Made by a program: the position numbers and the translations under genes. Below, in pieces: positions 28,560 to 36,150 of a stretch of DNA of 51,986 bases (positions are counted from its first letter, which is position 1; each line of letters starts with the position of its first letter). The stretch lies in the IMG/VR virus record IMGVR_UViG_3300036766_001779, positions 1 through 51,986 of that record, one strand, 5' to 3'. The notes beneath the pieces were generated by a model that was not told the origin of the DNA, searched no databases, and saw nothing but the letters and a program-made list of their open reading frames with translations. This DNA is from a virus (Duplodnaviria > Caudoviricetes).

Positions 28560-29025
28560 GCTCTGTGGTCCAACTGTAGTGCAGCAAGCCGATGGCATCC
28601 GACACATTGAGATTGGCCGTCGTTGGCTTGAATTTAATTTTCTGTCCGTAAAAATATTTCATGCGCTTGTAAATGATGGGCTTTTTCAACTGCCCTTGCC
28701 ATATACCTGCAGACAACAGGCCAATCTTTTTGCAAGACGAAAGGCCAATAAGGATTCCAACCATCATTGACAGCTTCAAAATGGAGCCGGACTCCTTCGC
28801 TTGATTGCCGGCTCCTGCATGAAACACTCTCGGCAACTCGATGACGAGCTCACTTGGCTTGTAAATTGCAATTTGCTCACAAAGACCTTTTGCAATGACG
28901 ACTGAACGTGCAGCGTAATTCTTTTGTTTGTCATCTTCAAGACCGTAAGCCTGCAATTGCCCTTGCTTGCGTCCAAAAGCCCATCCACTAAAAAGTGTTC
29001 CAGGGTCAACAGCGAATCTGCTCAT
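28534..29025 (-). CDS. RuvC-like Holliday junction resolvase
   Basis: FAVDPG...GWA, LVIELP, W.G...K, NVSDAIGL. Confidence 0.85.
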   Translation of the reverse strand: MSRFAVDPGTLFSGWAFGRKQGQLQAYGLEDDKQKNYAARSVVIAKGLCEQIAIYKPSELVIELPRVFHAGAGNQAKESGSILKLSMMVGILIGLSSCKKIGLLSAGIWQGQLKKPIIYKRMKYFYGQKIKFKPTTANLNVSDAIGLLHYSWTTEHAITWLSL

Positions 29026-30950
29026 AATCCAAGTTCCTTTAAATTAACTTTTTCAAGATTGTGCCAGTTGCCATTCGCACGTTCGACTGACACCTTCAAA
29101 GGAATTATCAATTCTGGATTGTCGCCCATGAGACGCACAATTTGTTTGGGCAAAAACTTCTCTTCGCTCTCGTGGATTTCAACAACAATCTCGTCGTGAA
29201 TCGTCATAATCATTTTGGACTTGTAGTTGTCCAGCACACGGCCGACTCGCATCATTGCCCGTTTCAGCACGTCAGCTGCCCCACCTTGACAGAGATAGTT
29301 CACACCCTTGTAAGCATACTGCGGGTCGATAACATAGCGACGACCCATGAAATTGTGCAAGCAACCTTTTGTGCGCACTTCGTTAATGACGCGTGCTTGA
29401 AAATCCCGCACACCCGGAAAATAGCCGTAATACAGAGCGAGCAGCTCTTCCACTTTTTCAGGAGTACATTTTAACTTCCAAGCGAAAGTTTTTTTGCCCA
29501 TTCCGTAAAGAATTCCAAAGTTGACAATCTTGGCGAGCACTCGCAGCTTTTCTGATATCTCGCCGTAAAGAGCTTGACAAGTTTCAGAATGCAGGTCTCG
29601 TCCCGATGTCATTATGTTCACAACGCGTTTATCTTTGGATTCGTGCGCGAATATACGAAGCTCGATTTGTGAATAGTCAAAATGCCAGTTTTGAAAATCT
29701 TCGCGCGGAATGAAAGCCTTTTTCACTCCTTTGAAAACGACTTCTGCTCCAGCTCGTTCTCGCACCACATCTTCCATCGGAATGTTTTGCAGATTTGGAT
29801 TGCTGGAAGAGAATCGTCCTGTTTGTGTTCCAATTTGTGCATAGTTTGGATGAAGGATGCCGTTATCAAGGTGTTCACGATAGCCAATAAAGTACGTGTC
29901 GCGGACTTTAATGTATTGCCGCCACCGAATGAGCTCCTTTGTGAACTCGCAGTCAAAACGGCTCAGTGCCCGCTCATCCATACTGGGCTGGCCACTTTTC
30001 GTACGAGCGCCAATTGGATTATTGAACTGACCGTACACAACAGGTATTAGCTGCAAGTCGGAGCCGAGATTAATGTCCTTCGGTTGAATAACTTGAATGT
30101 AGTTGCTGCGCACTTTTTTGCCTTTACGAGTACGCGTTCTCGTCCGTTTAAGTCTTATAGGCTCCAGCAACTTTCGCAATATAGCTTCGGATTTGACTTC
30201 TTTTGCTGTTAGTTCTTTTATTCGCTCGAGCATATAAGGCTCGTCCAAGCGAATGCCCCGATTCTCCATTTTGATAATGTACTGCAGCAATTCCATTTCA
30301 TTCAAATATAGGTCCCACAGTTTCAGTCGTTTTAACGGAGCGAGAAAAACATAAAACAGCTGTAGCGTGTTTTCAACATCCCGCTTGGCGTATGGAATGA
30401 GAATGTCTTTTGGCACGTCCGAGTAGTTGGGTGGTCGACCATTTTCCTCTGTAAAGGATTTCGTGTTCTTCCTTATCCACATCTTAACAGCATCAGATTT
30501 TGGCTGCTGCAAATATTTTTCGGACAGCACTTCCAAGCTAAGCCGCTTCAAACAGTTTTCTTTATGCTTTGGCCCTGCTTTGCCCTGTGCTCCAAGTAGA
30601 TGGGCCATTACCATTGTATCGTGGATTCGGCCAGCAACACGTATATCGTTAGCAGCCAACATTTTCAAATCGAACTTGGCGTTATGAAATACCTTAATGA
30701 CGTTCGGGTCTGCCATCCACTTTCGCACGCAGTTGCGCATACCTTCCATCTTGTCAAGTTTAACAACGGAGCGGCCATTAACATTGCAGAACGCGTAAGC
30801 GAAGATTCGATTGCCATGATACACGTCCAAGCCATCAGTTTCAGTATCAACGGCAATCACCTTGCCGGGCAACCGTTCGCCAGCATTGACCCACAACTGT
30901 GTGCCAATCTTGGGTCGGCTGTATTTTGTGCGTGCTCCTAAGTACACCAT
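29022..30950 (-). CDS. polA: DNA polymerase family A with 3'-5' exonuclease
   Basis: AVDTET, HNAKFD, YAKRD; TGRFSSSNPNLQNIP, DYSQIELR, KIVNFGILYG, TIHDEI. Confidence 0.95.
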   Translation of the reverse strand: MVYLGARTKYSRPKIGTQLWVNAGERLPGKVIAVDTETDGLDVYHGNRIFAYAFCNVNGRSVVKLDKMEGMRNCVRKWMADPNVIKVFHNAKFDLKMLAANDIRVAGRIHDTMVMAHLLGAQGKAGPKHKENCLKRLSLEVLSEKYLQQPKSDAVKMWIRKNTKSFTEENGRPPNYSDVPKDILIPYAKRDVENTLQLFYVFLAPLKRLKLWDLYLNEMELLQYIIKMENRGIRLDEPYMLERIKELTAKEVKSEAILRKLLEPIRLKRTRTRTRKGKKVRSNYIQVIQPKDINLGSDLQLIPVVYGQFNNPIGARTKSGQPSMDERALSRFDCEFTKELIRWRQYIKVRDTYFIGYREHLDNGILHPNYAQIGTQTGRFSSSNPNLQNIPMEDVVRERAGAEVVFKGVKKAFIPREDFQNWHFDYSQIELRIFAHESKDKRVVNIMTSGRDLHSETCQALYGEISEKLRVLAKIVNFGILYGMGKKTFAWKLKCTPEKVEELLALYYGYFPGVRDFQARVINEVRTKGCLHNFMGRRYVIDPQYAYKGVNYLCQGGAADVLKRAMMRVGRVLDNYKSKMIMTIHDEIVVEIHESEEKFLPKQIVRLMGDNPELIIPLKVSVERANGNWHNLEKVNLKELGL

Positions 30951-31207
30951 TAAAACGGCGCCTCCTCACGCAGACAGAATTTCATCGCTTTGAACTCCTG
31001 CATAATTCTGTTTATGTGCCCGAAACCACAAGTTTTGCAGAGCACAAATCGTTTCTTTTTTGGTGTGATGACAGTTAGCGAACAATCGGCTGCGGGCTTT
31101 TTGCAAATACAGCAGTCGACAGCCGGTGTCCAAAATCCCACTGTGTAATAACTGCCCTGCACAGTGAAATCCGCTACACGAGTGAGATGCCGCTTACTCT
31201 CCGCCAT
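30950..31207 (-). CDS. Small Zn-finger-like protein
   Basis: CCIC...CKTC; GGAGG RBS; translationally coupled to polA. Confidence 0.55.
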   Translation of the reverse strand: MAESKRHLTRVADFTVQGSYYTVGFWTPAVDCCICKKPAADCSLTVITPKKKRFVLCKTCGFGHINRIMQEFKAMKFCLREEAPF

Positions 31208-31493
31208 TCATCTTCGCCTCCGCCTTCAACATATTCTTCGCATGAACTTCGTCGAAGGCCTTTTCCAAATTGATGCCCAGCGAAATTGCCATCCCGACAA
31301 CGACGTACAGCACATCTGCCAGTTCGGTTTCGACGTGCTTGTGGCTCTTGCGTTTGTTGACGGCCTGAGCCAATTCGCCGACTTCCTCCATTAGAAGGGC
31401 GAGATGAAAGTGGGCGTTCCGCTGACTCGGCTCGTCTAACGGAAGGTGGTGCAGATGATAGAAGTCAAGTAGCTGATACTTGAGTTTTCTCAT
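31194..31493 (-). CDS. MazG-like (d)NTP pyrophosphohydrolase
   Basis: EEVGEL...ELADVLYV...LGINLEKAFDEVHAKNM. Confidence 0.85.
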   Translation of the reverse strand: MRKLKYQLLDFYHLHHLPLDEPSQRNAHFHLALLMEEVGELAQAVNKRKSHKHVETELADVLYVVVGMAISLGINLEKAFDEVHAKNMLKAEAKMNGGE

Positions 31494-35166: not shown

Positions 35167-35330
35167 TGTGACCTTTTTGGTCACTGTTTTGAATTGCCCT
35201 TGTTTCAGGCTCCTCAAACATATCCTGTAGAATCGCTAAATTCGCGTCGCCTTCACGAAATTTGGCGTGTTTGCAGGCTGACCCCGCATTTTATAGGGTT
35301 TGACCGTAAACACGTCAAATTTTCGTTTCT
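35167..35330 (+). repeat. Dispersed ~165-bp element, copy C (between queD and queE)
   Basis: Begins with the perfect palindrome gtgacc-ttttt-ggtcac; colinear with copies A and B. Confidence 0.85.
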
Positions 35331-35338
35331 TGACACGG

Positions 35339-35785
35339 TCATTTTGACCTTCTAACTTTTGCCGAACTTGTTTCAGTTTCCCAAACCGTTATGGATTCCA
35401 ATGTTAGATGTGGCTCTCTGGAACGCAACACTTCAAAAGCAATTCCAAACAAACAGTGCGCCACATTTTCCGCCGTCGTATTTGTGTAGTGGTCTGGCAT
35501 TATATGAAGTCGTTGTTTGTTGTCCAAACAGAATGCTATGAGTTTGCTGTCGTTGGACGTTGCGAGCACTGCGTGGTCCATTGTTCCTACAACGAATTCG
35601 GCCAAATATTCTTTCAGCAGAGCGAAGTCCACAAGCATTCCGATTACGTTGGCTTCGCCGCTAATCTCAATCTCGCACGAGTATGTATGTCCGTGCAGAT
35701 TGGCGCAGATGCCGCGATAGCCGTTTATCAGCCGATGCGCCATATGCCAGCTGAAACGTTTTTTGATTGTTGTGCGTGTGCTCAT
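35339..35785 (-). CDS. queD: 6-carboxy-5,6,7,8-tetrahydropterin synthase
   Basis: AHRL...CANLHGHTY, GMLVDF, DH, TAEN, VWET. Confidence 0.95.
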   Translation of the reverse strand: MSTRTTIKKRFSWHMAHRLINGYRGICANLHGHTYSCEIEISGEANVIGMLVDFALLKEYLAEFVVGTMDHAVLATSNDSKLIAFCLDNKQRLHIMPDHYTNTTAENVAHCLFGIAFEVLRSREPHLTLESITVWETETSSAKVRRSK

Positions 35786-36150
35786 TTTGAATCCTTTGTT
35801 AGCGGATTGAGAAATCCAATGTAATTCATTCCGTCGCGAAGATTATCGAGAATCTTTTCGTTTACCCCAGCCTTTTGGATGGTATTCGACGGAATTTCGC
35901 AGTCAAGCCCTTCGTTAAACCGTACGAGCTTGCCCATCAAGAAAATTACGCAGCAGTCGTATGCCGACAAATTCTTCTTCGTAATGGCCGACGCTGCAGT
36001 CGCAACTTGCGTAAAAAAGGTTGTTGCGTCACCGTAGTCCTGTTCTCGCTCGGACAAAATCGCTGCTGCTTGGTCATGCAAATCGAGAACCTGCGTCGAC
36101 GGCGACTTGTCCTCCACTCGACTCGAACCCTTAAAGTCCTTCATTCCCAT
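35782..36150 (-). CDS. DUF6378-like protein
   Basis: EREQDYGD...F..VA...KLVR...DNLRDGMNY. Confidence 0.65.
   Translation of the reverse strand: MGMKDFKGSSRVEDKSPSTQVLDLHDQAAAILSEREQDYGDATTFFTQVATAASAITKKNLSAYDCCVIFLMGKLVRFNEGLDCEIPSNTIQKAGVNEKILDNLRDGMNYIGFLNPLTKDSK

Follow-up and report, generated by a model that had tools for sequence, protein, structure and literature searches.

How a phage comes to replace every guanine of its genome is a question raised with particular force by phages that carry a transglycosylase of the DpdA3 subfamily: an exchange that follows replication would have to be driven to completion if 100% of G is to be replaced. The question is posed anew by a virus record of IMG/VR (IMGVR_UViG_3300036766_001779; Duplodnaviria, Caudoviricetes; positions 1 to 51,986, the whole of which is hereafter the window), whose 52-kb genome holds a compact set of parts, namely, FolE, QueD, QueE, a purine phosphoribosyltransferase (PRTase), DpdA3, DpdL, MazG, and PolA. 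Judged by sequence comparison, this cluster is a new, distant member of the kind of system described for phages phiST and immuto_2-6A (Cui 2023, PMC10516641). The reading that we favor, and to which we would give about an even chance, is that the cluster specifies a phiST-type conversion of G to the deoxynucleoside of 7-deazaguanine (dDG) by exchange on DNA, in which the PRTase acts as a guanine sink or recycler.

The transglycosylase, the QueD paralogue, and the pathway that feeds them

The 276-residue protein encoded on the minus strand at 31884–32714 is, on the strength of sequence homology and predicted fold, a DpdA of subfamily DpdA3, with the minimal barrel of a tRNA-guanine transglycosylase (TGT). 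It has no Pfam match. Aligned by BLASTP with CGPG_00065 of phiST, it is similar end to end over 240 residues (22% identity, E 1e-8), and a family profile (A1), composed of the protein and nine database relatives, matches the DpdA3 proteins of phiST (1.3e-29), immuto_2-6A (5e-29), and CP220 (8.5e-18). An AlphaFold2 (AF2) model of the protein, with a predicted local distance difference test (pLDDT) value of 91.4, matches the phiST protein in a Foldseek search of BFVD (E 1.5e-15; template modeling [TM] scores 0.79/0.83). Against the PDB, the first 46 Foldseek matches are TGT-type (tRNA-guanine and archaeosine TGTs together with one Cap10 chain at rank 35), with E values from 1.6e-6 to 1.4e-5 and TM scores of about 0.5–0.6, and their margin over other triosephosphate isomerase (TIM) barrels is small, as rank 47 is another TIM barrel at 1.4e-5. 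The TGT-fold and DpdA assignment that the preliminary description gave this gene is thus borne out by both the head of the PDB list and the homology to phiST DpdA3. Within the family, D53, D84, and D214 are invariant in 10 of 10 members, and the alignment contains no invariant cysteine able to form the TGT zinc site.

The Pfam TGT family does not match the 276-residue protein, and profile A1 finds no TGT among the PDB sequences. PF01702 likewise recovers none of the DpdAs of phages 9g, CAjan, Rosebush, Dp-1, and nt-1 (0/5); being blind to these five published proteins, it renders negative TGT searches on phage DNA uninformative. The claim that five PRTase-bearing contigs lack any DpdA was dropped for this reason, since a negative result with PF01702 carries no weight. 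The same five contigs, one of which is more than 90% complete, give no DpdA3-like match with the profile that detects phiST, immuto_2-6A, and CP220. A 340-kb viral contig (L125; 91% complete) possesses the PRTase, FolE, QueE, and DpdL and no DpdA3-like match, and other types of DpdA are possible there.

Adjoining the transglycosylase, the QueD paralogue at 31465–31881 (minus strand, 138 residues) is by sequence a DpdL, that is, a putative decarboxylase of 7-carboxy-7-deazaguanine (CDG). Its relationship to phiST CGPG_00067 (33% identity, E 5e-15), its match to phrog_17812 (E 1e-19), and the motif LASTHRHTF at L32 uphold the earlier reading of this LxxxHRHxF paralogue as DpdL. The motif, which takes the place of the QueD signature CxxxHGH, recurs in 32 of the 33 DpdL-family open reading frames (ORFs) of the loci fetched for comparison, and a tblastn search with the protein reaches 27 phage records, including phiST, phi13:1, phi19:2, and Acidovorax phage ACP17. 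PhiST and ACP17 are named as sources of DpdL in the work that defined the LxxxHRHxF motif; dDG has been found in phi13:1 and phi19:2, and the DNA of phiST contains dDG with dG undetectable (Cui 2023, PMC10516641). In the window, DpdL is accompanied by DpdA, FolE, QueD, and QueE, without QueC, in a complete genome. Where either dDG or its carboxylated counterpart dCDG had been put forward as the product, homology to phiST makes dDG the expected one.

The genes that would supply CDG are readily recognized, with family matches above the curated cut-offs. FolE (guanosine triphosphate [GTP] cyclohydrolase I; 33349–33942, minus strand) matches PF01227 with E 1e-57 and 195 bits. QueD (6-carboxytetrahydropterin [CPH4] synthase; 35339–35785, minus strand) matches PF01242 (PTPS; E 1e-27, 96.6 bits) and phrog_2389 and has its CxxxHGH motif at C27 (CANLHGH). 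QueE (the radical S-adenosylmethionine CDG synthase; 34386–35162, minus strand) matches PF04055 (33.2 bits), PF13353, and phrog_2076 (E 5e-28), with the radical motif CxxxCxxC at C35. QueC (PF06508) gives no match anywhere in the complete genome, in a search that was positive in 14 of 14 control genomes, and the whole-genome search for QueF returns only a sub-threshold cross-match on FolE. For ArcS, the sole proxy was PF01702, which has no match in the genome; the family of ArcS itself was not searched, and PF01702 misses known phage DpdAs. The absence of QueC and QueF noted in the preliminary description therefore agrees with the whole-genome family searches, and its proposal of a 7-deazaguanine DNA-modification cluster ending at CDG draws support from the Que matches, their motifs, and these negatives.

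A pathway of this kind could in principle serve the host instead, the Que genes only raising the precursors of queuosine for tRNA and the phage DNA staying unmodified, as has been raised for phages with genes of the preQ0 (7-cyano-7-deazaguanine) pathway and no DpdA (Hutinet 2019). We consider this highly improbable for the window: a DpdA3 is present, the pathway ends at CDG with DpdL in place of QueC and so would supply no preQ0, and homologous clusters accompany fully modified DNA.

A megablast search with the cluster in 50,697 phage records yields no match and hence no near-identical phage. Closest to the window is L003, a viral contig of 42 kb, in which the order QueD-QueE-PRT-FolE-x-DpdA3-DpdL-MazG-PolA is kept at 37–64% protein identity (MazG 61%, PolA 64%); because gene order persists at such divergence, the arrangement is not due to chance. 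Phage phiST shares with the window the CDG pathway without QueC, a DpdL with LxxxHRHxF, DpdA3, a pyrophosphohydrolase, and the position of the cluster beside a polymerase, in the order QueD-QueE-FolE-MazG-like-DpdL-x-DpdA3-x followed by the polymerase. It also has a member of the PRTase family, CGPG_00045. The two phages nevertheless differ in several respects: identities are low (22% for DpdA3, 33% for DpdL), the MazG-like protein of phiST has no detectable similarity to that of the window, its PRTase is separated from the cluster by about 17 kb and is near a ribonucleotide reductase whereas that of the window sits between QueE and FolE, and its genome measures 79 kb against 52 kb, with no reductase found in scans of the window. 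In immuto_2-6A, the order is QueD-x-QueE-x-x-PRT-FolE-x-gp208-x-DpdA, then DpdN, a kinase, and QueF, and then PolA; gp208 is homologous to the window MazG, and the DpdA3 is the one matched by the family profile at E 5e-29. Its core (QueD, QueE, PRTase, FolE, the MazG homologue, and DpdA3, with a family A polymerase after them) is thereby ordered as in the window. The fetched stretch of immuto_2-6A contains genes for QueF, for a thymidylate-kinase-like protein, and for DpdN, a formyltransferase, and gives no DpdL match, whereas the pathway of the window ends at CDG with DpdL.

The phosphoribosyltransferase and its viral family

The PRTase of the window lies at 33917–34384 on the minus strand and matches PF00156 with 32.5 bits against a cut-off of 26.3. 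Its nearest PDB sequences and folds are the xanthine-guanine PRTases (XGPRTs) of E. coli and Y. pestis, along with archaeal purine PRTases. The AF2 model (pLDDT 91) matches XGPRT in Foldseek with E of about 1e-8 and TM scores of 0.65–0.73 at roughly 20% identity, and both the type I PRTase fold and the motif for 5-phosphoribosyl 1-pyrophosphate (PRPP) are present, the latter aligned to DDxxDTGGT of XGPRT. The E. coli and Yersinia enzymes (Gpt), of about 150 residues, share this fold; the window PRTase differs in being viral and in residing in a 7-deazaguanine operon. With 31 bits it does not reach the cut-off of 138 of the NCBIfam equivalog for xanthine/guanine PRTase (NF006613), and we therefore describe it as XGPRT-like, a protein that by its sequence would function as a Gpt at most and is not classed as one.

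Relatives of this PRTase are numerous at a permissive threshold (1,157 at E ≤ 1e-3) and few at a strict one (just 14 at 1e-10) among 1.84 billion representatives. We approached their genomic setting from two directions. Around the transglycosylase, 14 of 79 viral loci yield a match to the PRTase profile no more than 10 kb from the DpdA3-like gene, and two further matches are weak. In the reverse census, which covers the best 80 of at least 263 viral-contig relatives, chosen for their likeness to the window PRTase and together carrying 96 PRTase ORFs, the counts are lower bounds, since many loci are short; ORFs were taken from stop to stop and families were collected by jackhmmer searches seeded from the window. 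Within these 80 loci, QueE occurs in 61, FolE in 60, QueD in 47, a DpdA3-like protein in 32, a window-type MazG in 31, and DpdL in 17, and at least one of QueD, QueE, and FolE lies within 10 kb of the PRTase in 67. Such co-occurrence, for which the preliminary description had proposed a survey, indicates that the PRTase travels with the pathway. Clustering of the 96 ORFs gives 78 groups at 70% identity (40 at 50%), and a gene of the CDG pathway lies near the PRTase in 67 of the 78. The gene directly upstream of the PRTase is QueE in 27 of the 96 cases and FolE in 26; on the downstream side, the adjacent gene is FolE in 22 cases and MazG in 21. The window PRTase thus belongs to a family of viral proteins whose genes are embedded in deazaguanine clusters.

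The family is also conserved at its catalytic and base-pocket residues. Across the alignment of all 96 sequences, the motif reads DDxxD[TS]GxT and its third aspartate, D80, is invariant (96/96), while K104 (77/96), W134 (87/96), P138 (91/96), and E140 (92/96) are conserved. In 6-oxopurine PRTases, this aspartate contacts N7 of the purine; adenine PRTases have alanine there. The tryptophan, proline, and acidic residue match the base pocket of XGPRT, which in E. coli is W-x-x-x-P-x-[DE] close to the C-terminus. At these positions, the 24 sequences from loci with DpdL show no difference from the 72 others.

Cultured phages place the family in a functional context. In phiST, the PRTase is CGPG_00045 (profile E 6e-26), and the ribonucleotide reductase is encoded three genes away; in CP220, it is CPT_0182 (1.4e-19). 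A tblastn search with the phiST protein matches 34 of 50,697 phage records, comprising 15 from Campylobacter, 5 from Cellulophaga, 4 Flavobacterium immuto phages, 2 from Brevundimonas, 1 from Synechococcus, 2 uncultured, and 5 from Vibrio, the last as partial matches. The same search with the window protein finds nothing, its relatives surfacing only with the family profile or with phiST or CP220 queries; absence by a single-sequence search accordingly means little. All three groups with 100% replacement, phiST, CP220, and immuto_2-6A, which are described as completely modified and as ending at dDG, 2′-deoxy-7-amido-7-deazaguanosine (dADG), and 2′-deoxy-7-(formylamino)methyl-7-deazaguanosine (fdPreQ1) (Cui 2023, PMC10516641), contain the PRTase, and the profile has no match at E ≤ 1 in five partially modified phages, 9g, CAjan, Rosebush, Dp-1, and nt-1 (for which Hutinet 2019 and Cui 2023 give the extent of modification), a contrast of three against five that is small. 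We found no treatment of the PRTase in phage deazaguanine systems: the string "phosphoribosyl" does not occur in the consulted texts of Cui 2023 and Hutinet 2019, and Supplementary Data S1 of the former may list it. A link is hinted at by GenBank, which labels the homologue of Campylobacter phage F379 a [quoted passage not shown]. As a separate observation, the 300-residue folE product of Vibrio phage 033B (Queuovirinae; L180, 4821–5723) resembles, in its N-terminal part (locus 5001–5138), the C-terminal third of the phiST PRTase (E 9e-4); this part may be a remnant of, or a fusion with, a PRTase.

What substrate would such an enzyme use? Its presence in phages that make dDG, dADG, and fdPreQ1, with an unchanged pocket, argues for a common substrate, either guanine or CDG and not DG, the free base 7-deazaguanine. 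The earlier suggestion of a second route, in which the PRTase would ribosylate the finished deaza-base, is therefore disfavored by a pocket that is the same with or without DpdL and by this spread over three end products. As for the choice between guanine and CDG, QueC and QueF act on free bases. Both enzymes are reported in immuto_2-6A (Cui 2023, PMC10516641), which argues against ribosylation of CDG in that phage, and guanine fits best. What had been offered as the simpler alternative, recycling by the PRTase of the guanine released by DpdA, has consequently become the favored reading, on the XGPRT-type pocket and the distribution of the family.

A case for CDG comes from Streptomyces. In the tubercidin and toyocamycin clusters, compared here by description only, a PF00156 PRTase (TubE/ToyH) stands beside FolE, QueD, and QueE, and the tubercidin cluster, whose TubE acts specifically on CDG, has a decarboxylase and no QueC (PMC6112128; bioRxiv 2026.04.15.718813). 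On this model, the window PRTase would ribosylate CDG or DG with PRPP and DpdL would decarboxylate base or nucleotide; host kinases and ribonucleotide reductase would then yield 7-deaza-dGTP, MazG would destroy dGTP, PolA would incorporate the analogue, and DpdA3 would clear residual G. The frequent placement of the PRTase directly after QueE or before MazG (the 27 and 21 of 96 cases above), the proximity of PolA to DpdA3 loci, the lack of a DpdA3-like match in the 340-kb contig with PRTase, FolE, QueE, and DpdL, and a modified-dGTP route once proposed for Campylobacter phages (recorded in Hutinet 2019) are all consistent with it. The resemblance has its bounds, however, as TubE has 194 residues, its pathway makes a secreted nucleoside, and the tubercidin decarboxylase is a UbiD and not a QueD paralogue (PMC6112128); TubE, moreover, rejected plain deazaguanine (same source). 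The XGPRT pattern with its invariant D80 is difficult to reconcile with a deaza-base, since a 7-carboxylate or a C7-H would have no use for the aspartate. Neither kinase nor reductase was found in scans of the window, the PRTase was not found in Rhizobium phage RHph_I1_18 or Vibrio phage D479, the family occurs in immuto_2-6A beside the free-base enzymes QueC and QueF, and the 340-kb contig lacks only a DpdA3-like match, PF01702 being powerless to exclude other DpdAs. Taken together, we regard a TubE-like entry into the nucleotide pool as unlikely.

Neighboring genes and the genome

The remaining members of the minus-strand run are of two kinds. MazG and PolA recur with the pathway. The all-alpha nucleoside triphosphate (NTP) pyrophosphohydrolase of MazG type at 31194–31550 (minus strand) matches PF03819 (E 6e-11, 42.9 bits) and PF01503 (E 6e-12, 46.2 bits); its ORF overlaps the 3′ end of dpdL, and the true start is probably an internal ATG. 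Its PDB relatives are 2q73, YpjD, DR2231, and, weakly, MazZ (7ody, E 0.018), with no match that defines specificity. The family A DNA polymerase PolA (29022–30950, minus strand; phrog_17, E 1e-117) has counterparts in 51 of 79 loci, encoded no more than 10 kb from the DpdA3-like gene.

Three other genes are not conserved. The DUF6378 protein (35782–36213, minus strand; PF19905, E 8e-7), whose start is uncertain and which overlaps the end of the primase-helicase gene, has no homologue in L003 or the other fetched loci. The same holds in the other fetched loci for the 205-residue ORF at 32711–33328 (minus strand), in the place of which L003 has an unrelated 86-residue ORF and which shows no similarity to phiST CGPG_00066. 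The 85-residue cysteine-rich, zinc-ribbon-like ORF at 30950–31207 (minus strand) belongs to no family and is without a homologue in the other fetched loci, including L003. As L003 does without all three, they are not core parts. The preliminary description had listed eleven co-oriented minus-strand genes, all of which are found in place by ORFs and family matches; its "Rho_N-like" label attaches to a real ORF, the 205-residue one, yet the C-terminal Rho_N match itself is weak and below the cut-off (E 0.021, 15 bits). The sole sizeable gap within the cluster, 176 bp, separates queE from queD (35163–35338).

The 51,986-bp record as a whole is a complete phage genome, classed as having direct terminal repeats and as 100% complete, and the window shows an exact terminal repeat of 127 bp. 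Structural genes occupy the plus strand as far as about 27 kb; those for replication and early functions follow on the minus strand from 28.5 kb on and include, besides the cluster, a Holliday-junction resolvase-like gene, a primase-helicase, a Sak4-like annealing protein, an exonuclease, a helicase, and an HNH endonuclease. No kinase or reductase came to light in the window when the early region was scanned twice against PHROGs and once against Pfam and kinase seeds from three phages were used; five small ORFs stay without a family after these scans. Also on the minus strand of the early region are genes for a DUF932 protein (44057–45100; 1e-23), a GGACT gamma-glutamyl cyclotransferase-like protein (44976–45824; 7e-9), and an Amidoligase_2 protein (48611–49606; 2e-30), and for an enzyme of the last kind the carboxyl group of CDG is in principle a possible substrate.

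The base composition of the genome holds a curiosity of its own. GATC occurs three times (21663, 39655, 42281) where a second-order model expects about 148, a ratio of 0.02, and CTAG (0.45) and CATG (0.54) are also below expectation. Such scarcity of GATC is odd in a phage that is expected to hide all its guanines and might reflect a stage at which its DNA is exposed unmodified.

Other phages display the DpdA3-like gene in varied company. In Vibrio phage D479 (L082, 7983–9385), it is followed directly by a deoxynucleoside monophosphate (dNMP) kinase. In Rhizobium phage RHph_I1_18 (L002, 7001–8785), it lies within a 423-residue protein that carries a DUF3310 annotation, and a dUTPase comes next. 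In Brevundimonas phage MaInes (L168, 2654–7468), genes for ribonucleotide reductase, dNMP kinase, FolE, and PRTase are consecutive, and a DNA polymerase adjoins a weak DpdA3-like match (4.6e-6).

Possible routes to complete replacement

The activities of the cluster enzymes are here predicted from their families, and the scheme that we favor joins them as follows. FolE, QueD, and QueE, whose family matches are strong, would convert GTP to CDG, and DpdL would remove the carboxyl group of CDG to give DG, in line with the published proposal. The DpdA3 barrel would exchange G for DG, on DNA in the published view. The XGPRT-like PRTase would join the expelled guanine to PRPP to form guanosine monophosphate (GMP); the removal of guanine would pull a reversible exchange to completion, and GMP could return through GTP to FolE. 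One guanine would be released for each GTP used by FolE. MazG, a conserved neighbor, would act on the pool of (deoxy)nucleoside triphosphates.

Several considerations weigh against this recycling scheme. Other phages that achieve complete replacement usually do so in the nucleotide pool, and MazG, PolA, and sometimes nucleoside monophosphate (NMP) kinases sit in these very clusters. A nucleotide-pool arm through MazG and PolA may exist; recycling by itself would leave MazG without a role. The combination of a PRTase with FolE, QueD, QueE, and a decarboxylase, in the absence of QueC, would by analogy equally suit the logic of tubercidin, with TubE acting on CDG. DpdA3-type proteins are acidic (pI 4.8–6.4 in 12 of 12), which is unusual for an enzyme of DNA. 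The contrast between completely and partially modified phages is, as said, small, and the PRTase profile finds no member in RHph_I1_18 or D479, both of which carry DpdA3-like and DpdL genes; the PRTase is therefore not obligatory and a helper at most. Finally, DpdA3 and DpdL expressed in E. coli gave no activity, and no dDG was obtained (Cui 2023, PMC10516641).

These observations invite a reading in which DpdA3 does not modify DNA at all: guanine would be replaced before replication, and PolA would build a G-free genome, a prospect that we rate as rather improbable. In its specific form, MazG would convert dGTP to dGMP, as MazZ does, DpdA3 would exchange guanine for DG on free dGMP, kinases would rebuild the triphosphate for incorporation by PolA, and the PRTase would recycle the guanine. 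The attraction of this exchange on the free nucleotide is that none of the conserved genes (DpdA3, DpdL, MazG, PRTase, and PolA) would be left without a role and that complete replacement would be explained. The model agrees with the lack of success of DpdA3 on plasmid DNA in E. coli (Cui 2023) and the nucleoside form of 7-amido-7-deazaguanine (ADG) in infected cells (Cui 2023, PMC10516641), as well as a small, acidic DpdA3 with no invariant zinc-site cysteine and the dNMP or NMP kinases that adjoin DpdA3-like, FolE, or PRTase genes in D479, MaInes, and immuto_2-6A. Yet we know of no TGT-family enzyme that acts on a mononucleotide. The similarity of the window MazG to MazZ is weak (the E of 0.018 above), relatives of the YpjD and DR2231 type being better, the window has no kinase of its own that was found, and acidity is weak evidence. 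On balance, we consider this specific form doubtful. The Z-genome system (PurZ, MazZ, DatZ, DpoZ), which the preliminary description had invoked, provides an analogy only: there too, genes of base synthesis adjoin those for a family A polymerase and an enzyme of MazG type, but PurZ and DatZ have no counterpart here, and the window has a transglycosylase that the Z system does without.

For phages that replace guanine completely, the helper that is missing from the picture has a concrete candidate in the PRTase, be it a guanine sink, as in the recycling scheme that we favor, or an entry to a nucleotide route. Knowledge of the route would be useful for the enzymatic production of fully 7-deazaguanine-substituted DNA and for explaining phage resistance to restriction enzymes. 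Were it true that DpdA3 acts on a free nucleotide, the TGT family would gain its first transglycosylase that works at the nucleotide level.

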